A stretch of DNA of 64,000 nt from Cyanidioschyzon merolae (taxonomy: Eukaryota). Of the stretch, positions 1-57,813 are shown one piece after another; position 1 is the stretch's first letter; the number at the start of each line of letters is the position of its first letter. The stretch lies in NCBI GenBank assembly GCA_000091205.1, contig AP006501.2. One strand, given 5' to 3'. The position numbers and the translations under genes were made by a program. The notes below the pieces were generated by a model that saw nothing but the letters and a program-made list of their open reading frames with translations, was not told the origin of the DNA and searched no databases.

Positions 1-2339
1 GCGAGCAACTCGCAGTCCAGCGTTTCCTGTGGCTGCATCTCGCAGGGTGCAGGCGATGCGCTGCTCTGCAAAGCGTTCTTCTCATCGGGTTGAATCGACG
101 AATCTATTCTCAGCGGTATGGAGTGATGGATACCATTATTTTTCACGACTTGTGTATAGGGAAACAGTCCTTGGTGTATACATCATGTGCTACGGCCCTG
201 CCGCATCGCTGAATCTTTCGATATGAATGCTTTATCCAGATGAGAATCCAATGATCTTTCTCATGGCCAGTGAGTTTTCATCAAGAATCTGTAGCATTTC
301 AGCACCAAGCAGCAGTGAGTGCGAAACGATATCCTCGAAAACATCGCCGGTGACGTCCTTTCCATGGTCTGAAAGCATGAGATGGTTCCCAGTATTGATC
401 GAGGAGTTCGTGCCTCGGTAAAGGAAAGTGATGGCGCGCAATGTTGCTGGTGGAATCATCCTATAGCAAGCACATCATCTTCGATTTCGACGCCATCTAA
501 AGTTTGCTCTGGTTACCCTACACCAGCCTGTACATGCCTCTCTGTTTCTCCACCGGTTTGACGACGAACGTTTGCTCTTTATGGGTGTGGCTCTTCCTAA
601 ACGCATCGATAGGAAACCTGCAGAATCCATTCCAGCGTTCGTCGTACGCTGTCGTCGAAGGAGCGCATGTTCAGAGGTTGCGCACGACAGCACGCCCAGC
701 GCCCGAGGCTAACAATACAATGCGATGCTTGTCGTCTGTCGTTCCCGTTCCCAGCTTATTGAACGGGTTGGTTAACGCACGAGCCCTGCGCCGTGCAACG
801 GAAACCATTGGCGACACCAATACGTTCTTACGATCGTTCGTCAGATATCACCCGTATGCGCCATTTGGACGCTCCTATACCCTCTCCGAATGAAGAGTAC
901 CAGGCATTCCCCTGCTTGATGCAATCCTCAGATGGCTGGTACATATGCGGCCGCGGTCATACAATCTGTACCCGCACCTCCTGGCGTCCGTGATACCCGG
1001 CTCTTGATACCAACCAGCCTTTAAATATGCAGAACCGCTTCATCTGTCTTCCGTCCAGTTTTTTGATTCCGCTCTCTTGATTTGGAGGTACCGCATCAGC
1101 TAATACGCAATGAAACAAGGGATGCGAGCACACAAACCAGTCTCGCTCTTCATCTACTTTGACAGTCGAAAATGCTTCTCGTTGCTCGACAAAGGCTGAG
1201 GTTTCATAACGGGCATGCGGATGCGTATTCCGCTGGTCACAGTCATTCCTGAAAACTTGTTTCTAATTCCTCCAGGCAACTGAAAAACCTTGAACGAGCT
1301 CCGCTTCTGCCCAACTCGACGTTCAACGATTCCTATGTACTTGCTCGCAGAGACGGGCAATAGCTCACTGAGGAGACCATGCATAACAAAAGCGTCCGCG
1401 GTGGTAGGTCTTGATCTTGAATACGAGTGTTCTATAGAGTAGACGCTTCAGAAGGCGAGCGCGCTCGGATTCCAGAAGCGGACCCCGTTTGCTCTAGAGT
1501 TCTCTGTTCTGAAACATGTATTAGCGAGAGACGAATGCAAGGTCGGCAGTTGTCAAGTTTCAACGAATGTTTTAGATACGACATCCATCGGTGCACGGCC
1601 GAGAGCAACACAGCGGGCTTGGATGATCAGAGGCGACTATCTCACTCTCGTTACGACGTCCTTTCCGACCCTGTTACAGAGTCGATTTCTTCCGTCATCA
1701 ACGGCTGGCTATTTGGTGGCATCAGCACCTCAGGACTGTAGTTTCCAAGTCCGCACTTTTCTAGGCCAGTGCGGAGAGCGTGCAGAACCCGCAGTACGCG
1801 CTTCAAGGAACGTTCGAGATCGATCCTCATATGGTGATGGAGGTTGATTTGATACTTTTGGCACCTGCGTTGGGCATATGACGATCGCAGATGTGGCACG
1901 GGAACGCGTCAAACCATACTGAAAAGCGCCTCTGCAAATCTCTGATACTGCGATCAGGCCGTATTCCAGCCTCTGTGCGGAACATCAGCAGCGTCTTCAC
2001 ACCAAGGTCTGACTGAGAAGTTCTGGGGGAATGCGGACAGCTGCCCGCCCCACGTCCGAAACTCATACAAAAATCAGCTTCTCGAGATGCTTCAAGGCGT
2101 GAGAAGCTGGGCGAGGCCTCTGTGGGTAATAAGACGCGTGATCAACAATGCCATGCCGCATATAGCGTTGTCCCGAATGCGAACGACTCGTCAATGGATC
2201 CGTGAACGTCGAAATGACGTCTGGCAACGAATGACAGTTTTGAATGCATTGAACCAAGCAGAATAGGCTCGCAGCCGCGTCCACCTTGACAGTTTGGGAG
2301 GCATGGAAAGCGACGTCTTCTAGCGGCAGGACAGAAGAA

Positions 2340-2650
2340 TGTGGGCGGTAGACGCCAAGAAGAGTGCTTCGAGGAAGCATGAGGTGTTGCGCGATCCTGT
2401 ACATCTGGTGAGTTTTAGGCTAACGCATGATATAAATCACGCCCCGGCTGATGTTATCGTCTTTATCACTTGTCGCTGCTTTACAAATAGCAGTTTGGAA
2501 CCCGTTGAGCACCCAAATACACGTCTCCCATCTGTCTCGAACAAAGTCTCATCGAACGAGACGAATACCCGTCAATCATGGGTGAAGCTTTCGGATCTCA
2601 ATACGATATCGAGTTTAGATTATCCAACGCACGACAGCCTCCCGTAGACG
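2340..2650 (+). mobile_element. Copy H, a degraded zinc-ribbon/RuvC-III remnant
   Basis: ORF 2339..2647 contains '…DVIVFITCRCFTNSS…' (matches VVKVdpryTSqTCskC), followed about 35 aa later by '…VKLSDLNTISSL' (matches DLNAxINILRL). Confidence 0.35.
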
Positions 2651-2987
2651 CGTACCCGTTTCTTTCATCATCCTCGTCTCTTCGCCAACGCTCGTATCAA
2701 AGGTGCGAAAACCTCAAATCCTGTCGCGTCTTGCATAGTATTTCATAAAGAGCACATGGTTTCGGATGGAAACGTGTCGAGATAGTCCTGGAGATGGCGT
2801 TGGATAAGCTCCGTGTATGGTAAAGGTCGTTCAGGATTGGGACAACGAGACCGGCGGTTCATCCGCCTGGTCACTCCTGAATAACAGATTTGTACCATTG
2901 ACGTCTTTTCTTTCGCAATACAGAACTGAGGGCATGAAATGTTCCCGCGACATTTCTCCAACCTATGGGGTACAATCCGTTTATTGA

Positions 2988-3752
2988 ATGCCTATGAAGA
3001 GAGCGAAAAAGAACAAAGAAGCGCGCTGCTACAAGTGCTCCAGAATTGACTCCTCTGTGTATAACAGAATCGCACCGCTTTGGAGGACAAACTGCACAGC
3101 CGACGTTATCCTCGCGCCCACACGGTTCCTCAAGAAGCCGCACCTGATTGAGGGACGACGAGTCTACCACACATTCGGGTTCTGGCTCGCTGAAACCCAT
3201 CACATACTAGAATGGAAACCGTCCATCAAGCTAGCTCGGGAGTGCAATCTAAAGTTTGAATCTCGTCCCGTCGTCATCAGCACCGTCATTTACGGGCTTT
3301 TTGTGTGGCTGCTTCTGTTTTCTCTGTTCTATCTCGCGCTTGGGATACACCGGTCACTCCATTCCCGCTGGCTCGATTTTCAGCAGGCGGGCAATGTAGA
3401 ATACAGCGTCCAAGTCCCTATTGCACAGCTTACGACTGTTGCCGACGCATTTGATGCACAGACAGGAGTTGCGATCTGCGCTTCGCTTCCTACGTTCATC
3501 ACCTTTGGGTACAGCGTCGGTGCGAGCCTCCGCAGCGATATCACTCGCTTGTGGTCATGTGTTACCGCACAGGTCCACTACAGCTCCTCTTCATCCGAGA
3601 GCCTCCTGGCGGCGAATGAACACTTGCCTCATCGCTTGGTACATGCTCTTGACAAAAAAGGAAGGCTAAACTCGATGCCGTTCTCCGTTTCCGCACCCGG
3701 CGCCCTACGCTTTGATCACGGGCTCCGTCTGGGCGACCTCCCTGGTGAGTAG
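2988..3752 (+). CDS. hypothetical protein with a hydrophobic segment (VVISTVIYGLFVWLLLFSLFYLALG); no family recognised
   Basis: 254-aa ORF from the track. Only a predicted transmembrane-like stretch supports it. Other-frame ORFs overlap it and it sits next to a repeat copy, so it may not be a real gene. Confidence 0.25.
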   Translation: MPMKRAKKNKEARCYKCSRIDSSVYNRIAPLWRTNCTADVILAPTRFLKKPHLIEGRRVYHTFGFWLAETHHILEWKPSIKLARECNLKFESRPVVISTVIYGLFVWLLLFSLFYLALGIHRSLHSRWLDFQQAGNVEYSVQVPIAQLTTVADAFDAQTGVAICASLPTFITFGYSVGASLRSDITRLWSCVTAQVHYSSSSSESLLAANEHLPHRLVHALDKKGRLNSMPFSVSAPGALRFDHGLRLGDLPGE

Positions 3753-5001: not shown

Positions 5002-5808
5002 ATGGGTCAGTGTGTAAGTGGCGCTTACAATCATGAAGACGACAGCTTCGTATCCATGAGGCAGCTCCTGGAGCGATACGGGAAGTATCTCTACGAGGCA
5101 CGGCCGGATCCCACTATTCAGGATATTGTGTTGTTCTGCAAAGTTTGTAAAGTTCTACCCAGTTTGAGAATAATCTTTGAAATCCCCGTAAGCACTGGGA
5201 GAGACGTTTGGACACAAGAGACATCAAAGTCGTTTTCTGGAAGGCCACGACGAAGACGTGCACTGGCAGATGAGGAAACCGAGGTATGGATAGATGAAAA
5301 CGAGCACGTCGAGACTTGTACCCGGCCCGGAGGAAAAAGCGCACGACTCTCCTTCGATTCGAACCACGCAAACAACACACCGTTGTTCCGTCGCGTGCGG
5401 GCAGAGCTTCGTGGTCTCTGCTTCGAGGCGCGTACAAGCTGGGTGGCCACGCAGATGCATCACGTCCTGACGCAATTGCTTCCTTCTCAGATGATGGCAC
5501 AGCTATGGATCTCAGCATACAAATTAGATGGATCTGTGGTTGCGGACGTTCTCAGGCTCGAAGACCGATTGCATATAAACAGAACGCTGCTCGTTACTGG
5601 TTGGGGATGCCTGCACCCCAGTATGCGAAAAGAACGAATTCTGGAGGAGCTCGAAGGATATGCGAGGCGGCATCGATGCGGAATCTGGGCGTTCCCGAAA
5701 GAGACGAAATCGTTCAACAGCACGCCCCGCAAGCACGTCCCCAGATCACGTTGTCGATCCCTAGCAGAAAGTCAGCATCGAGCACATTTATACGCATGTG
5801 AGCAATAA
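5002..5808 (+). CDS. hypothetical protein; N-terminal MGQCVSG resembles an N-myristoylation (MGxxxS) signal
   Basis: 268-aa ORF. The only supporting feature is an N-terminal Gly2/Ser6 pattern. Competing ORFs overlap it (5114..5518 −, 5316..5801 +). No conserved domain recognised. Confidence 0.3.
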   Translation: MGQCVSGAYNHEDDSFVSMRQLLERYGKYLYEARPDPTIQDIVLFCKVCKVLPSLRIIFEIPVSTGRDVWTQETSKSFSGRPRRRRALADEETEVWIDENEHVETCTRPGGKSARLSFDSNHANNTPLFRRVRAELRGLCFEARTSWVATQMHHVLTQLLPSQMMAQLWISAYKLDGSVVADVLRLEDRLHINRTLLVTGWGCLHPSMRKERILEELEGYARRHRCGIWAFPKETKSFNSTPRKHVPRSRCRSLAESQHRAHLYACEQ

Positions 5809-5899
5809 AACGAGAATCGTTCTACAACTATGCAGGGTAAACATATATGTATCCATTCACAGACATCTCCCAGCCTATTTTGAACAAGCGCATGCTACC

Positions 5900-6440
5900 G
5901 GTTTCAGTGTTTATCCATGCAGATTTCGAGCCTGAGAGGCTGCTCCACAAAGTGAGATCGCGTCAGCACCTCGGATCTCGTCGTCAGCATCGCATATCGT
6001 TTGATATTGATTGCGGAATTGAAGTCTCGGGCCACGACCTTCATGCGTTTATCACCTTTGCTGGAACCCATCCATCCTACGATTCCTGTAACTCACACCC
6101 TCTGTGCCACTACAGTCTCGTCATCGCCCCATCGATCAGATATCTTTTCTCATCTATCTCCGTTTGGTTCTTCTTCCTCTTGTTCTTCGTTATTTGCACC
6201 TCTATGTTCGACGTTTGGCGCCAAGATGTATTTTCAGGTTTTTTCCCGGGAAACCGGCGATGATGACCCTCCTGGATCCCTGACTACCATGTCCATGTCT
6301 TTTGCTTGGATTTTTTACTTGCTCAAATGAACGCACTTCGAATGCATCAGCTACAAACCGCGAAAAAGCATTTGATGACATGCACCTGGATGTGGAATGC
6401 ATTTGGCGTCTCTGAGCATGTAATACGATCTTTGTCTGGG
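5900..6440 (-). mobile_element. Copy A, a short internally deleted derivative that abuts the ALG14 start
   Basis: ORF 6202..6402 (−) reads '…FSRFVADAFEVRSFEQVK…'. An unlisted 46-aa ORF at 5904..6044 (−) reads MKVVARDFNSAINIKRYAML…. Nucleotides 6130–6440 align with 34340–34640, for example CTCAAATGAACGCACTTCGAA[T/C]GC. Confidence 0.65.
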
Positions 6441-6485
6441 ATTTGTTGGCGGCCTTTACCCCTGCTTGGGGCTGCCAAGCCGAGT

Positions 6486-7322
6486 ATGTCTATATATGTA
6501 GGTCTTTTTGCGGTCACGGTAGTGCTAGGCATCGTGTTGATCTTTTCCAAGGGCGTGCTGCTCAGTTCCGCGAACTTGTCGCGGCGCTCGTGCTTCGCAC
6601 GGGAAGCTGAGCGTCGCCGAACGCAGTGCAGCAGCCCAAACAAGCGTGTTTTTGAGGAGCTCTGGGCAAGGAGACCTTTCGAAGAGCTGCGCATCGGAGC
6701 TGATCAGCCGTTGCACTTGCTGGTCGTGCTAGGATCCGGCGGGCACACAACAGAGATGCATAGGCTTCTCAGTCGTGACGGCGGCTTGCTCAGCGAGCGC
6801 TGGGTCGACGCCCCCGTCTGGGTGACGTTTGTATATGCAAAGACTGACAAACGCACCCCTCGTTGGATAGAGCGTTTTCAGAGTGACCTTCCTCCAGGCT
6901 TTCGCGTTCTGAACTGGGTGGCAGTGCCTCGCGCTCGTGAAGTTGGTCAGTCATGGATAACAAGTGTATTCACCAGCATCCACGCTTGTGCCAGTGCGGC
7001 GGGGTTGTTTCTTTCCAGCCACTCACTGGCAACGAACGATCGCATGCGAGCACCAGCACCTAATGTCGTACTATGCAACGGACCAGGAACCTGTGTGCCT
7101 TTTTGTCTGATAGCATTTATCGTTCGAATCTGGAACTCGTTGACGAGAACCAGACCTGCTAGCGCGTATCCAAGAATTATTTTCATCGAGACAGTCGCGC
7201 GTGTTTACAGCTTGTCTCTCACCGGGAAGATCTTGTACAGATTTGCAGATCGTTTTCTTGTGCAGTGGCCAGAGCTCGCCAGGCGTTACGTTTACGCTGA
7301 ATATTACGGACGTCTGGTGTAA
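6486..7322 (+). CDS. ALG14: UDP-GlcNAc transferase subunit ALG14
   Basis: LLVVLGSGGHTTEM, VLCNGPGTCVPFCL, IIFIETVARV and FLVQWPEL are the signature ALG14 blocks. An N-terminal TM anchor (MSIYVGLFAVTVVLGIVLIF) follows Met at 6486. The track ORF begins at 6306, but 6306–6440 lies inside a repeat copy, so the downstream Met is the more likely start. Confidence 0.85.
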   Translation: MSIYVGLFAVTVVLGIVLIFSKGVLLSSANLSRRSCFAREAERRRTQCSSPNKRVFEELWARRPFEELRIGADQPLHLLVVLGSGGHTTEMHRLLSRDGGLLSERWVDAPVWVTFVYAKTDKRTPRWIERFQSDLPPGFRVLNWVAVPRAREVGQSWITSVFTSIHACASAAGLFLSSHSLATNDRMRAPAPNVVLCNGPGTCVPFCLIAFIVRIWNSLTRTRPASAYPRIIFIETVARVYSLSLTGKILYRFADRFLVQWPELARRYVYAEYYGRLV

Positions 7323-13399: not shown

Positions 13400-14090
13400 T
13401 CCAGTTTGCGCCGGAAGGGTTCTCTCCTAACGGCATGAACCAATGCGTTCATTTCCAAGAAATAAGGAATGAGCTGGGCTGTATACTCCAAAATGTCGAG
13501 ATGGAGGGAAGGTAGCCGACCGCTGCGGCGATAGAAAACCATGGAGAGCTGATAGAGCACCAAATGGCCCAGAGGGCGCGAATTCGCGGACTGCTTACAT
13601 TGACGAATTCAAGAACAGACAATAAACGCATGGAACTCTTGAACCGAGACTTTCAAGGCGCTATCAATATCAGACGATGTGCGGTGTTGAAGACAAGACC
13701 CGAGGATCTGACGCAATCCATTTTCTTGCGGGGCCAGCCTTTCAGGGTCGAAGTGTACAAGGAGAAGCTGAGACCGATCGCAGAGGGTCGGTCAAGAAAG
13801 GCTCGAAGGCGTGTCCAGGTGGGTAGCTATGTTTACCCTCCATGGCTGGGAAGCTTTTTTTTGTTGCAGTGAACGTCTTCTGTAGAACGCCAAGAAACGT
13901 CGCTCCGACACAAAGCGATCTAATACTACGCACGTACTCGAAGGGTGCTGATCGCAAGCAAAGCGTGGATCGCTACTCCCGTCTGTGCATGAAATGTGTA
14001 CGCGGTATCCGGAAGGCGCAAGACAGGAACTTTAACGCTGCCGTGAACGTCCTTCGATTGCTTGCAATCGATCTAAAGCGAACGTAAGAA
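13400..14090 (+). mobile_element. Copy B of the TnpB/Fanzor-like element (5' region + S1 + zinc-ribbon/RuvC-III S2)
   Basis: ORF 13564..13872 (…NKRMELLNRDFQGAINIRRCAVLKTRPEDL … GSYVYPPW) is followed in another frame by ORF 13842..14087 (…YSRLCMKCVRGIRKAQDRNFNAAVNVLRLLAIDLKRT*), which reads CxxC…D-R-N-F-N-A-A-V-N-V-L-R-L. An upstream TGCGTTCATTT box (~13430) resembles the 5' regions of copies A, C and D. Confidence 0.6.
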
Positions 14091-23695: not shown

Positions 23696-24329
23696 GCACA
23701 GAGTCTGCGTTCTTAGAGTGCTCGCACTGGGACTTGTACGCGTGCCATCGGTTTTGGAAAGCGGTCCAAGGTACGGTCCTGTGATGTATATGCGCGCGCA
23801 CCATGTGATAGCTTTGGCGCAGGCTCTACGAAGCGCAGTCAAGTCTGGATCACGATGATCTCCATATCGCGTGCGCTCTCGTGTCTGTCGTGGTGATTTT
23901 CGCCTTTGTAAAAAGTGTTCATGCAATGCCTTTCGGAGATTCGTCGCTTCTCAGCCGACGCGCGCTCATATGACCTCACAAGAACTGCTGCGGCCAGAGA
24001 ATCCGCACTGAACGCTCCAAAGGCTCCGTGTCCGCTTGCAGAATCTGTACGTGACCTGCAGGCCGCAATCCCGCCGAATGATGTTGCAGCACGGGTAAAG
24101 TAGCCGCTGCGCTGCATCGGATTTTTTTCATTGACAAAACGTGTGCATAGGCCAGTGCTCTCCGATTATGCGCATTTTTCTTTTCTTTCTCTTTTATTTT
24201 GTGTTTAACTTCAGTGCGCGGTAATGTATCTATAAAGCCCCCTACCTCCAAGTTACATTACCTATGCTGATTCTCGGATATTCTGGTCGTTTCATACTTC
24301 CTATCGTGTGTGCCTAGAGCCTGCCTTTC

Positions 24330-24640
24330 CGCATCCGCCGTTGCGCTTGAACCGCTGGAGCAGATAGTTCATAGAGCTAGAACAGCTTTTCTATACCCCA
24401 GAGGGCGTCGGCTCGAGGGGTGCTTCACCCGACGTAGAATCGGGTCTCGTCGTCAGTTTGTGCTCGGACAGTCTGCGGATGCAAGCTCGCCTTCGCGGCA
24501 CGACACGCTGGAGAAACTTGGCTGTTAGGATAAATCCTGGGAGTCGCCTCTCTCCTTCGTGATCATGCATGGAATGCGTTGTTGTCGGTTGGCAATGCGG
24601 GTTTGTGCTTGACGCTCACCACAGTGGATAGGCGCAGAAA
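24330..24640 (+). repeat. Dispersed repeat R3, copy 1 (partner at 35860–36160)
   Basis: 24370–24460 aligns with 35895–35985 (CAGAT..CA.AGAG..AGAACAGCTTTTC.AT.CC..ACAGAGGGCGTCG.C.CGAG…TGCT.CACC.GACA). It encodes 'RTAFLYPRGRR', and copy 2 encodes 'RTAFPFHRGRR', a TnpB N-terminus-like block. Flanking blocks also align. Confidence 0.55.
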
Positions 24641-25903
24641 GCATACTAAACCCGTGTGCGCATCCGATTCGCTGGACCTTGCGCCTAGAAGGTAGCATGT
24701 GAGTTTATTCGCCACGAATGAGCGCTGAGGCTCGGTTAGCGGACCACCAGTTGCCAGTGCTGCACTCAGAGTGAGTGTCCGGCCTTCGACTATCACGGTG
24801 ATATCCAGCTGATGCCGTCCTTCAAGGAGCTCGCTGCGCTCCTGCTTCCAGCGCGGGCACTGTAACAGTAAATATGTCAGCGTCTCGGGGTTATCGTCTC
24901 CACAGCAGGGACATTGTGATTCTCAGTGCAATCCCAGTGTTCCTATACGGCTTAGAGTCGGTGCTGCTAGCCAGAAGCCACCAACGCGGATTTTGGCGCG
25001 CCACTGGCTACCGCGCGCAAGTCCCGGGAGCTCCAGCGCCTCCCACCAGTACTTGCATGTGTATGCCGGGTTCTAGTTCCGGTATGGAGTCAAGACGGGC
25101 GTTACTGGCGCGACTGGTTCCGTGTCTACGTTCCCATATTGCTTTCTGGACGGTTCGCTTGAGGCGGCGGGAGCCTTCTACATTTCCGGGAAACGATTGG
25201 AGAGCGTGTCTTCGCCTACGGAGAGATCAGATTGCGCGCACGCTCATCGCCGCTGATTGAAATTGGCCCGTTCGCGCGTCATGACCCGTATCGTTGACAC
25301 GCGGGTCATTCTGAAGCGCGCATCGCGCCTGCGCCCGCGCCGCAGCGGCCGCAGTGCTACGTGTCCACGTATCGAGCGATCCGCATGCGTGCGGTAAACG
25401 GATCAGCACGTGCGTTCGTTCGTGCGTGACAGGGCATCGAGCGAAAACGGATCCCCGCTGAGGCCAGTAACGTCGATGCCTGAAGCAACATGTCAATGAG
25501 CCTGGTCCGTCGATGACGTTTCGTCGGAGGTGTTGGCCTCCCCAGAACGTCGTTGTATGCTCATGTACGGGTTGATATTGGGTTAGGTTTAGGTTCGAGG
25601 TCAAGTCAACTGTGCCTGTTATCTGGTTCGCCATTGACGTGTGGCTCGGTATCGCTGAGCGGTACCCAGCGCTGTGGGCCACTGTGTGCATATAGTTGAG
25701 GTGCACTTTGGGGTCCTCGAGGTTCGGTGGAAGTTGCCTGTTTGCAACTTGTTACTTGCACACAACGATTACGCACCGTTTCGAAGGCGAAACGCCCTCG
25801 TAGCGCCACAGCGAGTACGCGCTTGTAGAACAAGTTCACGGAAAGCGTCTGCAGCCGAGTCGTCTGGTGCCTGTGCGCAGTCGGCTCCGAGTCAGAGCCA
25901 CCG

Positions 25904-34033: not shown

Positions 34034-34640
34034 CTACGAGTACAGAGGGTAAGTATATACACACCTGCAGACGCGTCCCAGTCTTTTTTGATTGGCTGCC
34101 TGCTTTCGGCTGCAGTTTCTCCCTGCGCACTTCGAGTCTGAGATGCTGCCCATAAAGTTCAATCGCGCTAGCTCCTCGGGTCTCGACTTCAACGCCGCAT
34201 ATCTACTGACATTGATGGCGGCTTTGAAGTCTCGGTTCACAAATTCCATGCGTTTCTTGCTGGCGCCGCTGCTTGTACTCACCAGTGTAAGTCGTCCTCG
34301 AAGTCGTGGCCTCGGTGCTACAGCAGTATCGTCGTCGCCGTCCCGTCGGGCAAACACCTTTACTGGACTATCCCCCTACTTCGTCTTCGCCACTTGCTCT
34401 TTTCCGCTCGATGGTCGGCGAAAAGGGGAATTTTTTCGTTTCCTTTCCGGGAGCCGGCGATGATGGCCCTTCAGGATCCCCGGCTTTCATATCCATACCT
34501 TTTCCTTGGGGTTTTATCTCTTCAAATGAACGCACTTCGAACGCGTCTGCTATAAACCGCGAATAAGCATTTGGTGACACACATCTGGATGTGAATCACA
34601 ATCGAGATGAAATCCATAGCATTGAACTCCTGTGCCATCG
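34034..34640 (-). mobile_element. Copy C, a short (~0.6 kb) internally deleted derivative that retains N- and C-terminal TnpB-like ends
   Basis: ORF 34368..34580 (−) reads '…YSRFIADAFEVRSFEEIKPQGKGMD…' and matches the TnpB N-terminal signature 'kAyKfRLyPtkeQ'. ORF 34034..34357 (−) reads '…KKRMEFVNRDFKAAINVSRYAAL … SKCAGRNC … RVCRCV'. The nucleotide sequence is co-linear with 5900–6440 and, in reverse orientation, with 56060–56560. Confidence 0.65.
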
Positions 34641-35859
34641 GAGCACCGCGAATGTCTGGCACGCGAGGCGCCCAGGGGACTGAGGTCCGTCCGCCCTACA
34701 CCAGGGTTGCTGACCCGAGGTCTGCGTACCGGAACCGCGAAGGAGCTTGCCAACTCCTTAGTCAATAGTTTGGTTGGGTTGTATTGGCGTACGCCATATT
34801 CGCCTGACTGCGTTGCAAGGTAGCGTAGCTGCTTTTGAAACGGAGCTAGCCCTGGTCCACGGTTCGAAAGTTGCGGGCGTGATGCGCGGCCCCATGCCCC
34901 GGAGGTTTGCCATTGAGGGCTTCAAGTTCTCGCTGTATTTGATCGTACCGTTTTGCGCTGTTGTGTTCTTTGGTTCCAGCGATCACTCCTGGCTCGAGCA
35001 AGCTGTCGAGCGGTGGCGCTACGTCCAGTATCCCGTCAACGAAGAGTCAACGCTGACCTCCGCTGAAATCACAAGAAGGGTGTTTAAACAGCCGAAAACC
35101 GGGGCAGCTGAGGACCATCGAAAGTGAGCGAGTCTCGCGAAAGGGCGCCGCCCTTGCGCCTTCCGGAAGACACCCGTCTGGTCACTCTCGATGAGGTTCT
35201 GCAATGTTGCTGACGATCTCAACAGCAGGATGCGTGGATGGAAGCGTGGGCTTGCATGCTCGTCGAGACCTGAAATCGAAGAATACCCAGGCCTGCGCAG
35301 ATAACAGCATCGGTTCAGAAGCCAAAGTCGCAGTCTCCATAAGCAGATAAGAAATGACATCGGAACGGCCGGCTGTCAGACACAGGCACAAGCCATCGCA
35401 TATCGAAGAAGCTCGCTGGCCTCTATTAGACATCGTCATCTTACCCAAACGCTCACATCATTCCTTGTGAAAAAGCCATGGACAACGTAACGCCGAGATC
35501 GAGGCCTCTGTGCTGCATAATGCCTGCAACGAGCACGTTGGTAATGTCTAGTGTCAGCGATTTCTCCCATGCGCCACAAGAGATAAACGATTGCATCTCA
35601 AGAGCTCACAAATAGGGAACGGCTTGCCTCGTTCAGCGCTCGCTTCGAAAAATTTTAGCCCTGTCTGCGAGGCGACAACGCGTATCGTAATGCAGATTTT
35701 TCTCTTCGACAGAACCTTGGCACAACCTAGCTATCCCCGATCGCAGCGCCTGTTCGCAGCGCACAGGGAAGCATCAATCGTTCCACCTGCTTCCAAGTTC
35801 CACACGCCGTGCTTTCCCCCGAAGGAACCAGTAATTTTTACGCCATAACGTGTGCCGAG

Positions 35860-36160
35860 TGCATGCTATGAACACCAGCCGTAGCGCCTAAACCGCTGGC
35901 GCAGATGCATCACAGAGACAGAACAGCTTTTCCATTCCACAGAGGGCGTCGCCCGAGCAATGCTACACCTGACACGGAAACAGGGCTAATTATGATTCTG
36001 GGATCCTGCAAGCTGTGCAGACGGACGCACTGCCTGCGACAGCGCGAATCGACATTATAGGAGACCACTGCGACCAGGGCGACGCCCAGGCGCAGGCTAC
36101 CGGCTCCTAGTCCCAGAATGATATGCGTTGCGGATGAGTTGGTCAGGTCTCAATAAAGCA
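35860..36160 (+). repeat. Dispersed repeat R3, copy 2, immediately upstream of element copy E
   Basis: See R3 copy 1. Confidence 0.55.
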
Positions 36161-37470
36161 CCTGCCACTGGGAGGAGCATCAAGCACTAGCCTGGGAGAC
36201 ATGTCCAGCTCGCGGGAGTTTCCGCCTGTAAAGTAAACTTTCGAAGGTATGGATGTCTCTTCCCCAGTTTGCAGTTTCTCGAAGAGGGAAAAGAAATCAT
36301 TATATCGTTGCTAGTGAATCGTGAGTCTCTGTTCTTTGTTCTAAATAGCGCGGTCGATATGCGCACCTCGAGATTTGGGAGTTACGAGACACGACGCGCA
36401 TCTCGCCATGAAGGGAAATACGATCGTGATCATTCGTTGTCTTCTTGCTCTAACGACAAGTTGCATTCGCGTAAAGTCCTAGCAAAGTATTGTTTTCATT
36501 TCAATCGTGTTTCAACTCTCAGGTTAGTGTACTCAAGTGATTTTTCACGGTTTATACCGAATGCGCTCAAAGTGCGTTATAAGAAAAATTAGGAAAAGGA
36601 AAGTTACGGAAAGGGAAGCGGAGGGTCCTGGAGACGCGGTTTCGTCGGCTAGCGGAGAAAAACGAAAAACAGTGCGGAGCAAAGCGGAGCACGAGAAGAC
36701 CAAGGAGCAAATGCAGGAGGCCGCACGTCAATGGCTGCAAGAAAGGCGACACTACGACGATATGGTAGTGAAAGACTGACTTCTCGGACATACCAGGGAT
36801 CCATCCAAGCAAAAGTTGTGAGAGGCCATCAGAAACCGTGTCGATTCGTACTCCATGAGTGTTACAAAGGCTTCGTCAGGGATCATGTATTTGGTGAGGG
36901 AGATGTATCGCGACGTGACGCACATGGAAACAGTCGAGAATCCGGAAGGGTTTTTCAACATGGCGTCTATCCGCCACCTGATGCTCGGCTCAGGGGAGAC
37001 GTCGATGAAACATGAGCGAGTGCACGCCCTCCACGAAAATCACACCAAATATCGCTTCAACGGTATTCGATACAGGGGTGACTGGGGTATTTACACCTAC
37101 GGGGCGATGAAGTACATCACGAACAAGAATAACCACATGATCGTGAACCTCAAACGTCTCGTGATATGCGCCGTCTTTGTGCTGTACCCGGGCCTCTCTC
37201 CAGAGGAATGAGATGGGCCATCGTCAGTGCCATCACCAACGATCGTCATCATGAAGATGAGGTCGAATTTGTGGACAAGAAGACCTCACGCAGGAGCACG
37301 AATAAAGCTTCTGCCCTGCGTGCGGCTACTCAAGAGCATCGTGCAGTCGTGGGGCTGGTCAATCCAGCAGAAGAGGTATCAGATATGGAATAAAGCATGG
37401 GAAAAGAAGTAACAACCAAATCCTGCGCTATTTCGTATTCCTGAACCGAGAACTCGAACACAAGGCGGAA

Positions 37471-38247
37471 ATGGAGCAGGGTGTGGGGAACAATGCAGAG
37501 TCAGAGCAACGGAAGGCTGCGCTTCTGGAGAAGCGCTTCGACGTCGTTCGTATCTGCAACATCAAGTCACAATTTGGTACAATCGGCTTCAGAGTTCTTT
37601 ACGGCATCATGAACGAGATCTGTCCGGAGTTCGATGTAAGGAAGATAGAGTTCACCGGCGAAAACCGGGAATTCCATTGGAAAAATATCTTCGATTTCAA
37701 ACGTCTCAAAACGAGTAAGCAAAAAATATTCACGAGGATGATAGAAACCGATGGGGTATCCATGTGTGTACACTATCCGCGCTTGAAGGCAGATGGTCCT
37801 GTTGCGTCGTCGGCGTCGCCCGTGACGAAGCATGAAGGTGAGAAGAAGGCGGATCCTACGACGCAGAAAGTGCGGGGAAACGACTTTGTCGTTGGCGCGG
37901 CGAAGCATGAAGATGAGAAGGAGGCGGATCCTGCGACGCAGAAAGTGCAGGATAACGACTTTGTCAGTGGCGCGAACCCCGGAAACACGAATATCATAAC
38001 CATTGCAGCATGCAAGCGTGCGGGAGATGGTAAGGACGGCAACTTACGTCTGAAAGACACGCGTCTTTTGAGGTTCTCGAGAGCAAGATACTATCGAGAA
38101 TCCGGTATAATGAATGCGAGGAAGAAAATCGACACATGGAATGCAGGAATGAAGGATCACCTGGAAGCTATGAGCGGGGTAACGAGCCGCGGAGCGGACT
38201 TTGAAGCTTTTCTGAAATTCATGGGAGTTCGTGCTGCTCACTGGTAG
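37471..38247 (+). pseudogene. TnpB/Fanzor-like ORF fragment (C-terminal half, long variant) carrying an internal 75-bp tandem duplication
   Basis: Its start (MEQ…EQRKAALLEKRF) and end (…FLKFMGVRAAHW*) are homologous to ORF 38549..38926 (MEQ…QKHRALTEEQMERRAKF … GVMYARW*). A duplicated block [25 protein letters not shown] / [25 protein letters not shown] lies at roughly 37835–37985. Confidence 0.55.
37835..37985 (+). repeat. 75-bp tandem duplication (2 units) inside the copy-E ORF
   Basis: catgaaggtgagaagaaggcggatcctacgacgcagaaagtgcggggaaacgactttgtcgttggcgcggcgaag is followed directly by catgaagatgagaaggaggcggatcctgcgacgcagaaagtgcaggataacgactttgtcagtggcgcgaacccc. Confidence 0.85.
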
Positions 38248-38548
38248 GCGCTGTGGAGAGAATATACCAAGCCCCGGTGTTCTCGTCTGTGTATGAACTT
38301 GTACTGTGGGAAGAAGCGTGCATTTGCCAACTTTTTCTATCAGTTGAACGCCTTGGCTGGAGGACGAGAGTCAGAGAGTCGTAACAGCGACTGGAGCAGG
38401 GCTCTGCGCGTCCAAGAAAGGGAGCATACTCCCTGTATCGACAAGAGCGTACAATGAGTGCGCTCACCGTTTTGTTGTAATACCGATAGATGAGTTCCGA
38501 ACGTCATACATACACCGTGAACTGGGACGTACACTTCACAGGGTCGAG

Positions 38549-38926
38549 ATGGAGCAGTACCAGCAAAGCCCTGGAGATATACAAAAACACAGAGCGCTGA
38601 CGGAAGAGCAAATGGAACGGAGGGCGAAATTTCGTGGACTAGTCGCACTGGTGAGTGTACCCAACGGCAAGAAACGTATAGAGTTTCTGAACCATGACTT
38701 TGACACAGCAATCAATGTAAGGCGATGTGCGGTGCTGGAGAACAGACCCCCCGCCCCACCCCCCGAGTTGACTAGAGCCAACTTCGTCGGGCGACCTCTC
38801 AAGGTCCCGTTGAACGGAAAGAAGCTGAAACCAATAGTAGCTGGCCGGTCGAGAAAAGCCTGGGAAGCGACTGCGCGTCTGCGTAGAGACATCCACGCTG
38901 TCGGCGTGATGTATGCGCGTTGGTAA
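38549..38926 (+). pseudogene. TnpB/Fanzor-like C-terminal fragment (S1 type: KKRIEFLNHDFDTAINVRRCAVL)
   Basis: Shares the RDFxAAINV block with ORFs 13564..13872 and 34034..34357, with which it is co-linear. Confidence 0.55.
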
Positions 38927-39310
38927 ACCTGATTTGCCGGCGGTAGTTTCTTCAAAAAAAGCGCTCCGCAGCCAGCCATTTTGTGTGCGCAGCGAGCGTC
39001 ACTGCCCCTTTCAAAGCATATATTTCATATCCTAGTATCATAAAAGTGAGGGAGGTGTATTCTGAATACGAATATTCTGACGTGAAGAGCTCTTGATTTT
39101 TTTAAACACGACAGCAGCCCATACACGGAAGGGTGACGGCGACGGTGCGAGCGTGACAGGTTCGTGTACTTATCGAAGCAACATATCGCCCTCTAGGCCA
39201 CTGTTTTGCGCGGCGATATTTCCGCACTGAGGTGGGGTGTTCGTATTTTCTGTTTACAGGTGCCATATATTCCTTCATACGGTGCTAAGCTGTGATATAT
39301 TTCGGAAAAT

Positions 39311-52879: not shown

Positions 52880-54210
52880 TACGCCAGAGCAGTTCAAGCC
52901 TTGTGCACGCCAGACAGGCACAGGCGCGCTGCGTCTTCCACGGCAACACCCGTGTCGGATGAAAGTGGAACACTGGGCTGCTCGCATTGGTGCAGCTTTA
53001 CGATTTTTTCCGAACTTTTTTAGATGTAAAACCGCGGCTTTCGGAAAGAAGGAATATCGGCTTACGGGTTTATACGTAGTTTTAGGATTTTTGGGTGTCC
53101 TTATGGAATGGCTTCTTCGAACTTTGTCCGCTACAGCTCGTTTCGTCACCGGAATCCAGATGGGATTCTAGATCAGAATCTGGATGATTCGCAAAGTCGC
53201 CGAACATGAGTTCGAGAATCAGTCGACATCAGTTCCCGATTCATTCGAGCATGCCTCCAGTCTTCTACATTCCTTTCATGTTTCATGTTTAAACCAGATT
53301 TTCTTCAACTCTCCGATCTATGCCTTGCAAGGTGTTTCGTGGGCGCAGCAATTCGCACTTCTGGATTGACGACAAGAAAAACTCGCGGCCGTCGCTTGAC
53401 GACAAGTTCCAGAGCTCATGTCGAAAGCTCACCCAAGTCGTCACGTTTCGTAAACGATTCTGCTCGAAAGACGAGTCCTCCTCTATTTGTGGCCCTCTAC
53501 AAAACGACATTCGACTCCAGCACGACATCGCTTTTAGGGCTTGCTCCTAGAGGCTCCTATTTCCTCTGTTTGCGTCGAAACCGGATTCGGAGTCAGACTT
53601 GAGCCATCGCACCGATTGCTTCTAGTGGAGCGTTTGTCACCGCTGTGCACGAAGAGCGTGAAGACGAATCTTAATTTCTCGACACGTTCTCTGGTCTGGC
53701 TTTTCCTTCCGGTGCTCGTTTCATCATGGAAAACATCGCGTTCCACAAATCCTCTACCGAATGGAACAGCGTGTGCGTGTGTGTGCACCCGGCATCCTTC
53801 TCACAGAGGGATCCTCCAGAAAACACCTGTTACCATAGATTACGTCACCTGGCACGTAACTGGAGCAGGGCATCGAGGGGAGCCCCCTGTACCTGTCAAG
53901 GGATGTATCGAGCCATGAAGCAAGCCTTCTCGCATCAAATGGCGCTGGCCGAACGAACGAATGAGCGTGGTGAGCTTGTAGGAACACTTGACTTGGTCCA
54001 AGTGTCACCGATGCGACGGGCACATTGAGACTGTACGCATCGAAGAGGAAAATTGCAACTGACGCGTAGATCGCGACGACTTCCTGTGCACGAAATGCGT
54101 TGACAATAGCTGGAAACTGCGAATTCCGGACTTGAACGCTGACATCAACATCCTTCGACTTGTGAGAATGGAGCTGGAGAGACTAGCACATTTAAAGCCG
54201 GGTATGAGAG
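52880..54210 (+). mobile_element. Copy F2, the direct partner of F1, lying 5' of HisA on the minus strand; it carries the best-preserved zinc-ribbon/RuvC-III block
   Basis: The boundaries and motifs are the same as in F1. The C-terminal segment is listed as a separate feature at 53982..54218. Confidence 0.6.
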
Positions 54211-56059: not shown

Positions 56060-56570
56060 GACTGGCGGGTTTACACGTTCACCTGAATTGTGTTCCACAT
56101 CCAGATGCGTGCCATCCACTGCGTGTTCGCAGTGTACAGCAGATGCGTTCGAAGTGCGTTCATTTGAACAGATAAAAATCCAAGGGAAAGATATGGACGT
56201 GCAAGTCGAGGATCCTGAAGGGATTTCAAAGCTACCTGCTTGATAAAACCCTCATCTTGCTGATTATCAAAAGGCGAAGAAGTAGAAAAAGGAGGTAGGT
56301 GAGATAACGTGCGTGCTCGACGGGATGATGTCGAGACTGTAGTGGAACATGGGGCACCAGTCTGAAGACTCCTAGCGTTGACGAGTTCATCTAGCATCAA
56401 TATATGCAAGGAGTTCGTGAACTGCGACCCCATCACCACCATCAATATCAGATGACGTGTGGCGCTGAAGACGTGAGACCCCAGGAGCTGACGCGATCCA
56501 GTTTTATGGGGCAGCCTCTGATGCTCGGAATGTGCCTGGATAATAACTGAAGCCAATAGCAGCGGGTGCG
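56060..56570 (+). mobile_element. Copy D, a short degraded derivative in plus orientation
   Basis: ORF 56040..56243 reads '…CTADAFEVRSFEQIKIQGKDMDVQVEDPEG'. A degraded '…EFVNCDPITTINIR*' lies at ~56420–56470 in a broken frame. 56075–56250 is the reverse complement of the 6250–6440 / 34470–34640 block. Confidence 0.6.
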
Positions 56571-57813
56571 CCGGTCAGAAAGGTTCGGGGGCGGGCAGGC
56601 GGCGCCTGCACGTCGGTATTCGTTTACCCCATATGATCGCGAAAAGGTTTCGCTCCACTGAGCGTATCTTGAATCTGTGATTCCACAAAATGCAACCACG
56701 ATTCCATTTCAAGTATTCGCAAAAGCTCATCGCCAATATGCAGCGACACCACCACTGGAGGACGGTGGCGTTTAAGCGCTTGGAGCAGTGTTGCAGATGC
56801 ATCTTATGCACGCGCTATTGGTACGTTCGTGTGCGTCACCCGAGCCAGGAAACAAAATGCTTTGGTAAAGCGTTCTTGATTCCGTGCAGCGTCCACACAG
56901 GCGTTATACGTGGTATGACACACCCTCACGTCAGGCTCGGTACCCGGCGGAGCACGCGAACGAACCGCTGTCTCTGAAGAGAAGTTTGTGGCAATTAGAG
57001 AAACCTGTCGATGGAGTGCGGCGTGATGGGTGCTCCCGCGACGGCGAATGCCACCTGCTCTGCCGGAGTTTTTCCAAGATGAAAGATCTTCCGATAGAGA
57101 AAATTCCTTCCACGTTGGATATCGCAAATTGCGGGCAATCGAGCAATTGCCCGCACGGAGATAGCGAGGCTGTCCCGTCTCGTAGCTAGGTGCGCGGTAT
57201 GCTCGGCACGCAGGGCACGGGGTTTACCACACCGAACCTGTACTTGCAACGAGAAGACCGGTCTGGGGCTTGTGGAACGTAGAAGCAACTGGAAGAGGAC
57301 CGCGGTCTCTTTCCTGGTAAACGGCGACATTCGTGCATCCGGATGTTCTGGTTTGAATCGTCGATCCCTTATCATCCAAAATACCGCCACTCGTTGTGCT
57401 CGTTGCAGTGCACGCGAACGTGCACACCATGGCTCGTGCTTCGCTACCAACCGCTGCGATGACTCGAGCGACGCATCGTGTGCTTCGACCCGAACGCCGA
57501 ACGCGATGCAGCCTCGCAATCACCAATAGTTGATGCACACATTGTTCTCGGCATGCGGCTCCGAGTACAGGATGGCGTCGTTTGCGCAGGAATGGTAGTC
57601 AAAATCCAAATGGAAACCTGTTTGCGGCACGAGTGCCAGCGAAACGCGAACGCGTACCGCGAGGATTATACAAGAGCATCACCCTTCGAGCGCGTCTCTT
57701 CTCCCCAGTGGTATCGGTGCTCTTACTAGGTAGCCTGCGTCACGCGTCATGCAAATCGCATATCTTCTCGAGATCACAGAAGCCGCCCTAATCGACTTTG
57801 GCGCTGGGCATTA

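Follow-up and report, generated by a model that had tools for sequence, protein, structure and literature searches.

The three short copies of a repeated sequence (A, C and D) found in the 64,000-nucleotide stretch of DNA analyzed here (the window) are likely to be members of a family of old and dispersed non-autonomous relics, ca. 0.55–0.6 kb long, whose ancestor was a single copy of a Fanzor1 transposon of the CMe-1 group with an internal deletion. The copies have a common origin and a common deletion junction, have been dispersed and have decayed, and are devoid of the termini of the published element CMe-1A. The window corresponds to region CMS of chromosome 19 of Cyanidioschyzon merolae 10D, and eight of its ORFs have exact matches among the proteins of this strain (XP_005538873-886, with locus tags CMS2xx). 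Its large ORFs code for eukaryotic housekeeping proteins (XPG/ERCC5, Alg14, DDX1 with a SPRY domain, ARID/PHD and WD40 proteins), a plastid-type GyrA is also encoded, the G+C content is ca. 55% and few introns are evident. Two pairs of direct repeats, 49965-50025/52959-53019 (61 nt) and 50895-50939/53900-53944 (45 nt), are 75–78% identical and ca. 3.0 kb apart, a layout that suggests an old tandem duplication of ca. 3 kb around the HisA gene region.

CMe-1A and the related copies in the window

The Fanzor (eukaryotic TnpB) elements of C. merolae have been described before (Bao and Jurka, 2013, Mob DNA 4:12; PMC3627910). CMe-1A is represented by about 150 copies, ca. 80% identical to a consensus of ca. 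3 kb; no terminal inverted repeats (TIRs) were found, target-site duplications (TSDs) were undetermined or not found, the class was given as “unknown” and no Y1/HUH TnpA was reported (PMC3627910). According to the supplement of the same work, the consensus measures 3169 bp and the CMe-1 protein 734 aa, with an N-terminus that reads MEKEVEDPGGPVSP. A second, 635-bp element with ca. 70 copies, TE-N2_CMe, equals the 5′ 635 bp of CMe-1A (PMC3627910). In the CMe-1A consensus we located the start codon (ATG) at position 906 and the stop codon at 3108. A profile of eight CMe-1 homologues had SpuFz1 (8GKH) as its best match in the PDB, a weak one (E = 0.022) made of three collinear stretches that include ETDG... 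and DEFRTS/DEYKTS. The only Pfam match of the long homologues was Cas12f1-like_TNB, also weak (E = 0.1–0.2), and phmmer of protein P0220 against the PDB gave no match. The assignment of the parental protein to Fanzor1 rests on the listing of CMe-1 in that class by Bao and Jurka (2013; PMC3627910). The Fanzor1 ORF of the window also contains a tandem repeat of 25 aa (75 nt) at 37821-37970, directly upstream of the RuvC-I motif GADPGNTN, with one unit in the published consensus, two in the long copy of the window and up to about five in metagenome homologues (proteins with the tandem repeat are P0003, P0008, P0011, P0019, P0093 and P0220).

Self-comparison of the window revealed A, C and D, which measure ca. 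0.55–0.59 kb and are collinear from end to end, junction included, at 66–69% identity. Copy A (ca. 588 nt) was delimited with nhmmer at 5833-6420 on the minus strand, with a 5′ segment at 6420-6199 and a 3′ segment at 6111-5833. By blastn, 6375-6231 corresponds to CMe-1A 832-968 and 6064-5925 to CMe-1A 2881-3020, and tblastn with the CMe-1 protein placed aa 640-710 at 6119-5910. The region of the junction, where CMe-1A ~1020 is joined to ~2790, spans 6112-6198 (alignment of eight copies and mapping on the long-copy consensus). The minus-strand ORF of A bears ...DKRMKVVARDFNSAINI, the RuvC-III motif of TnpB/Fanzor, and a six-frame motif scan located its remnant ARDFNSAINI at 6003-6029 (minus strand). 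Copy C (34041-34635, minus strand, nhmmer) matches CMe-1A 793-969 and 2851-3088 by blastn and has KKRMEFVNRDFKAAINV at ~34208-34234. Copy D (56064-56624, plus strand, nhmmer) matches 843-934 and 2854-3010; it is the most degraded of the three, and no protein-level match to it was obtained by tblastn of the CMe-1 protein. A pattern search for the box GATGACAYRCAYCTGGATGTGGAAYRCA with up to three mismatches gave three matches in the window, at 6374-6401 in A (minus strand), 34573-34600 in C and 56089-56116 in D (minus strand), with none expected from 100 shuffles. Homology among the copies stops ca. 15–25 nt past the box. At the other end there is also a common stopping point, at which the mean pairwise identity per 20 columns drops from ~0.5–0.7 to ~0.2–0.3.

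The retained parts are CMe-1A ~790-1020, i.e., an untranslated leader of ca. 115 nt plus ca. 38 N-terminal codons, and CMe-1A ~2790-3090, i.e., the last ca. 100 codons (roughly aa 630-734) including RuvC-III, followed by a private tail of ca. 55 nt. At the place that corresponds to the published N-terminus, the short consensus has ATG GAC ATG GAA GTC GGG GAT CCT GGA GGG CC. By comparison of the short and long consensus sequences and the CMe-1 protein, what is left of the genuine Fanzor1 start codon was located in A at 6294-6296 (minus strand), where the sequence reads ATG GAC ATG GAA GTC ..GAT CC (compare MEKEVEDP in CMe-1). The box of A, which aligns to CMe-1A ~805-835 (it is found at 809 in the published consensus, upstream of the ATG at 906), is located in the leader, ca. 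78–105 nt upstream of this ATG and ca. 20 nt from the point where the short family begins on its 5′ side. The leaders of short and long copies show 74% conservation. The regions of RuvC-I (GADPGNTN) and RuvC-II (DEFRTS) are deleted, the RuvC-III remnant RDFNxAIN alone is left, and a Fanzor1 protein with the RuvC D...E...RD motifs is not encoded by the short copies. No Pfam match was found for the short ORFs of A or for a 258-aa ORF of the long copy described below. On the strand opposite to A, a 138-aa ORF (5847-6263, plus strand) has been annotated as a gene in several metagenomes (e.g., at 14355-14771 of L005). This ORF, which lies within the transposon relic, is almost certainly spurious.

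Other pieces related to CMe-1 are present in the window. The only more complete one is L, a near-full-length copy at 35766-38879 (plus strand) that is 82% identical to CMe-1A 62-3089; a profile made from long copies matches 35497-39028. L retains all three RuvC motifs yet it is frameshifted, and tblastn recovered aa 2-722 of CMe-1 in four frame-shifted pieces. Fragment B (13469-13860, plus strand) is a 5′-truncated 3′ piece that corresponds to CMe-1A 2737-2971 and onward. It ends in the same private tail as the short copies, but extends ca. 100 nt deeper into the ORF than their 3′ segment, and therefore is not itself a short copy. At 24124-24694 (plus strand; nhmmer 24124-24453) there is a fragment of the 5′ module of CMe-1A, similar to TE-N2_CMe and with no Fanzor part attached (blastn, 24241-24444 = CMe-1A 84-282 and 24663-24694 = 503-534), and at 539-787 (minus strand) tblastn detected an isolated and highly diverged internal relic of the CMe-1 protein (aa 543-624). 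Directly 3′ of B, an 81-aa ORF (13842-14087, plus strand) terminates in ...CMKCVRGIRKAQDRNFNAAVNVLRLL, an end that resembles the zinc finger and RuvC-III of another, distinct TnpB/Fanzor-like relic. Weaker matches to this ORF, in the form of short DNA repeats, were seen at 3445-3488 (minus strand) and 54064-54158 (plus strand), and Pfam gave no support for it.

An earlier note, made from the sequence of the window, had described A, C and D as short derivatives at the places where we found them, sharing a box near which homology ends and with a stop between the N- and C-terminal remnants, and on all these points our analysis agrees (stops are seen between the ORF remnants, and alignment of the copies gives common boundaries). 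The box and the 66-aa “MHSTSRC...” ORF, which is fortuitous, are not N-terminal coding sequence; the box is part of an untranslated leader. The note had also mentioned a fuller copy with ca. 0.8 kb more in between, but the only fuller copy of the window, L, has ca. 1.9 kb more, and B is devoid of the 5′ part.

The shared junction, dispersal and decay

A search with the C-terminal peptide added 79 loci on metagenome contigs of the C. merolae type, and orthologous contigs were used as well. With one profile for the 5′ segment and one for the 3′ segment, we measured the distance from each 5′ match to the following 3′ match in the same orientation. The distribution was bimodal, with 60–100 nt in 22 instances that represent 8 distinct loci, and a second mode at 1.8–2.2 kb that comprises 29 distinct long copies. 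The eight distinct short copies are A, C, D and five metagenome loci, the metagenome loci having been chosen for good long copies. All eight are collinear through the junction and their flanks are unrelated. They match CMe-1A ~790-969 and ~2840-3088 with 66–77% identity and E values from 1e-5 to 1e-36. The 5′ match to CMe-1A stops at 934-969 in all eight, in six of them precisely at 968/969 (968 in A, 934 in D), and the 3′ match begins at 2840-2907 in every copy; finer mapping on the long-copy consensus places the join at about CMe-1A 1020|2790. One junction common to the eight copies indicates one ancestral deletion of ca. 1.8–1.9 kb followed by dispersal, and the presence of the deleted form at no fewer than eight unrelated loci indicates that it was propagated after the loss of the protein, i.e., that it is non-autonomous.

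The short copies could instead have arisen by recurrent, independent deletions in separate long copies at recombination-prone short repeats (e.g., GAGCAAATG-like microhomology), without ever having moved. The long consensus does contain short microhomologies, GGAG and GAAGAGCAA, close to each of the two breakpoints. However, the short copies have derived characters in common, a box of the CCACATCCAG type and a 3′ tail with the insertion GGGTATATGTTTACCC, that appear in all of them and in no long copy, and this leads us to reject recurrent deletion as an extremely improbable origin. They also have the same 5′ start, and none has the 5′ module carried by most long copies. Furthermore, they group together by identity: in the shared segments it is 0.68 among short copies, 0.76–0.83 among long ones and 0.60 between the two classes, and each short copy has its nearest neighbors among the remaining short copies or in B, for which the closest sequences are in turn short copies. 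Only the short copies and B have the private 3′ tail, GTTTACCC..., which was seen in no long copy. The proposal of the earlier note that the short copies are non-coding, internally deleted, non-autonomous derivatives of a TnpB/Fanzor element, with a single shared deletion and not random ones, is thus upheld.

A different deletion derivative, ca. 1.62 kb long, was found at L084:4729-6345, L086:2902-4518, L087:6527-8143 and L094:2923-4541. Here the 5′ module of CMe-1A is joined to the last ca. 950 nt (1114|2862 of the long-copy consensus) and, unlike the short family, both published termini of CMe-1A are retained. L084, L087 and L094 had been considered as solo TE-N2-like elements, an identification that was rejected since they are 5′ parts of this derivative.

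The age of the short family is apparent from its decay. Identity along the short element is uniform (~0.5–0.75), falls to background at both ends and has no block that stands out, and stops and frameshifts break both ORF remnants. From the pairwise identity of ca. 68%, each short copy would be roughly 18% diverged from the common ancestor. Copy A is present at the orthologous site in eight environmental contigs with 98–99.5% identity, and C likewise in the environmental contigs that cover its locus (with the exception of L013/L014, which are mosaic, 90%). No empty orthologous site was found among the environmental contigs L003-L018, which share 98–99.9% identity with the window and in which A, C and L are always present. 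The short copies are therefore old, fixed in natural populations and inactive, and the present tense of the earlier note, in which such elements “are maintained”, does not suit them. In the mosaic contigs (L013:880-1060 and L014 compared to window 34041-34200; L018/L002:1-800 compared to window 36800-37600) the last ca. 150 nt of C and the left ca. 700 nt of L are replaced by paralogue-like sequence, 60–75% identical. The switch point is sharp and the neighboring genes are 99.5% identical; either ectopic recombination between copies or assembly chimeras at repeats would account for them. Hypermutation as the reason for the 90% identity (C in L013/L014, L in L018) was rejected, given the sharp switch and the 102 transitions against 97 transversions.

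Ends of the short copies and rival explanations

In most long copies homology extends 600–900 nt upstream of the box. The short copies start at CMe-1A ~790, which corresponds to 1264-1297 of the long-copy consensus in six of them and to ~1350 in the other two, the boundary being resolved to about ±15 nt only (the copies are ca. 68% identical). At the opposite end, long copies have ca. 60–80 nt in common past the stop codon, GGGCGCG..GCCGCCACTACTGTACAC...CGTTCGACTTTCGAACGGCG, finishing in a hairpin that is the end of the published consensus. The short copies and B end in ...GGTGGGTATATGTTTACCCTCTATGGTCGTGAAACGTTTTTCGTTTTACTG instead, and among 58 distinct 3′ ends no long copy had the 3′ tail of the short family. 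The end alignments agree that the short copies are devoid of the 5′ ca. 790 nt and of the 3′ ca. 60–80 nt, conserved terminal hairpin included, and no match to CMe-1A 1-790 or 3090-3169 on the same strand and at the corresponding place was found up to 1.2 kb from the short copies. The terminal hairpin of the long copies (CMe-1A 3147-3169; L063:4387-4407; 19 other long copies) comes in two versions, CGTTCGAC-TT-TCGAACGG and CGTTTTTC-TTTT-GAAAGGCG, both foldable and with shifted registers, and a second hairpin just past the stop codon (GGGCGCG...CGCC) has swaps between CG and GC (9 vs. 5). Together, these two hairpins may constitute either the 3′ portion of an omega-RNA or an end that acts in cis. 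At the other extreme, a T-rich (GA)TTTTT(C)TC precedes position 1 of CMe-1A in most copies (L094:2883-2927, L058:1207-1251, window 24113-24157); CMe-1A probably runs at least ca. 10 nt beyond its published 5′ end or inserts beside a T-rich target. Three long copies (L041:1226, L045:1821, which equals L031, and L052:76) all start at ~1207-1212 of the long-copy consensus, ca. 55 nt upstream of the start of the short family. They have no ca. 0.8-kb 5′ module, so that “core” long elements without the TE-N2-like part do exist.

These ends bear directly on the interpretation of the earlier note, that the short copies retain only the element termini, in the manner of MITEs or of the PATEs of IS200/IS605. 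Like MITEs, the short copies are non-coding, multi-copy, smaller than 0.6 kb and generated by internal deletion, but they are highly diverged and not homogeneous, and no TIRs or TSDs accompany them. The best local match between the 5′ end and the reverse complement of the 3′ end scored 5–8, with shuffle means of 5.1–6.6, and only chance repeats of 5–7 nt at inconsistent offsets were found as TSDs in the eight copies. Absence of TIRs and TSDs is also what characterizes IS200/IS605 PATEs, which are likewise short, non-coding and derived from an element of the TnpB family, and the boundaries of the eight copies are shared and sharp at both ends. A PATE- or MITE-like element would keep exactly the two cis-acting termini of its parent (hairpin ends in IS200/IS605) and use a transposase supplied in trans. 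As shown above for CMe-1A and the 29 long copies, the parental termini are precisely what the short copies have lost, as they begin ca. 790 nt inside. The subterminal hairpins that define PATEs at both ends are not consistently seen either: DNA folds of the 5′ 58 nt in six copies all differ and are no better than shuffles (z from +0.55 to −1.85), and a small hairpin in the 3′ 45–50 nt (GTGAAACG-TTTTT-CGTTTTAC in the consensus) folds in four of the eight copies (−3.6 to −6.2 kcal/mol, z from −1.5 to −2.3), being too weak and inconsistent to call. In the flanks of the eight copies no shared motif, tetra- or pentanucleotides included, is evident with boundaries at about ±15 nt. No Y1/HUH TnpA partner is known for CMe-1A, of class “unknown” (PMC3627910). 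Altogether, we consider an origin as PATE- or MITE-like elements unlikely. The Fanzor1-derived elements CRe-1/2/3 of Chlamydomonas (Helitron2-type; PMC3627910) provide another comparison, since they also have internal deletions, 5′ truncations and an excess of 3′ ends (here, 133 3′ vs. 79 5′ segments and eight distinct 5′-truncated copies). However, the Helitron hallmarks, 5′ TC and 3′ CTRR, are absent from the short copies, which end in ...CGTTTTACTG or variants; long copies end in the hairpin followed by GGCG(TT), not CTRR, and no Helitron Rep/helicase is linked to CMe-1A.

Two further explanations start from the position of the ends with respect to the ORF. The short copies might be functional, either as satellites that consist only of an omega-RNA and use the Fanzor1 protein of long copies, or as a domesticated small gene or regulatory element. 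The omega-RNAs of TnpB/Fanzor usually begin at the 3′ end of the ORF, and the short copies retain that end together with the promoter-proximal region, with a leader that is still recognizably conserved. Nevertheless, the 3′ segments of the short copies plus B, folded jointly with RNAalifold, gave −10.9 kcal/mol over ca. 300 nt with a positive (penalizing) covariation term, the long-copy hairpin CTGGAG/CTCCAG and the post-stop region of the long copies are not kept, and no Rfam match was found (whole window at gathering thresholds; 5700-6600 at E ≤ 1). With broken ORFs and no block conserved above the background of ~0.5–0.75, a present function is very unlikely. No more credible is the idea that the short copies arose by retroposition of a Fanzor transcript, either truncated or aberrantly spliced, with RNA ends (transcription start and 3′ end) as their ends. 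It would fit boundaries that are near the ends of the ORF and not of the element, but both a poly(A) tract and a TSD are absent. In addition, the 5′ boundary is ca. 65 nt upstream of a TATA-like TATATAA/TATAGCA, itself ca. 50 nt before the ATG, so that promoter DNA would have been copied.

Proposed origin and significance

The most probable history of A, C and D remains that of a relic family descended from one deleted CMe-1-type copy. A single ancestral deletion of ca. 1.8–1.9 kb (CMe-1A ~1020 to ~2790) would have removed the REC region, RuvC-I and RuvC-II, leaving a leader of ca. 115 nt with the box, the first ca. 38 codons, the last ca. 100 codons with RuvC-III (RDxNAAxN) and a lineage-specific tail of ca. 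55 nt. The deleted unit would then have been copied to at least eight unrelated loci, presumably by the same machinery that spread the ca. 150 copies of CMe-1A, after which all copies would have decayed neutrally, becoming fixed in natural populations, and today would do nothing. That the copying was transposition in trans we infer from dispersal with sharp shared boundaries only. As to the parent, fragment B, which may be a relic of its long subfamily, suggests a subfamily that is sister to CMe-1A and has another 3′ tail.

The family is close to CMe-1A in the same genome, being 68–76% identical to its positions 790-969 and 2840-3088 and equally free of TIRs and TSDs. It differs in the missing 1-790, ~1020-2790 (the body of the Fanzor1 gene) and 3090-3169, in its private 3′ tail and in being older and more decayed (68% pairwise identity vs. 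76–83% among long copies). TE-N2_CMe is also a short non-coding relative of CMe-1A in this genome (PMC3627910), but it equals CMe-1A 1-635 and the short copies start at ~790, so that the two sequences do not overlap. We found no description of the ca. 0.55-kb family in the searchable literature, and it may exist in Repbase.

The short family might also represent a minimal cis-acting core, made of the leader (box included) and the final ca. 300 nt of the ORF, sufficient for propagation of the CMe-1 type, although we regard this as quite improbable. If true, propagation could do without the published 5′ module and 3′ terminal hairpin, and copying would be expected to depend on Fanzor1 and its guide RNA (homing by cleavage and repair) and not on a classical transposase. 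We know of no transposase ever linked to the ca. 150 CMe-1A elements.

For annotation, the finding means that relics of ca. 0.55 kb are scattered over the intergenic regions of a model red alga whose genome is very compact, and that their spurious ORFs, such as the one opposite to A, are called as genes in metagenome annotations. Otherwise, this is ordinary decay of a transposable element. Still, a Fanzor1 element without its protein and without both published termini reached at least eight loci, and this dispersal constrains where the cis-requirements for the spread of CMe-1 are located.
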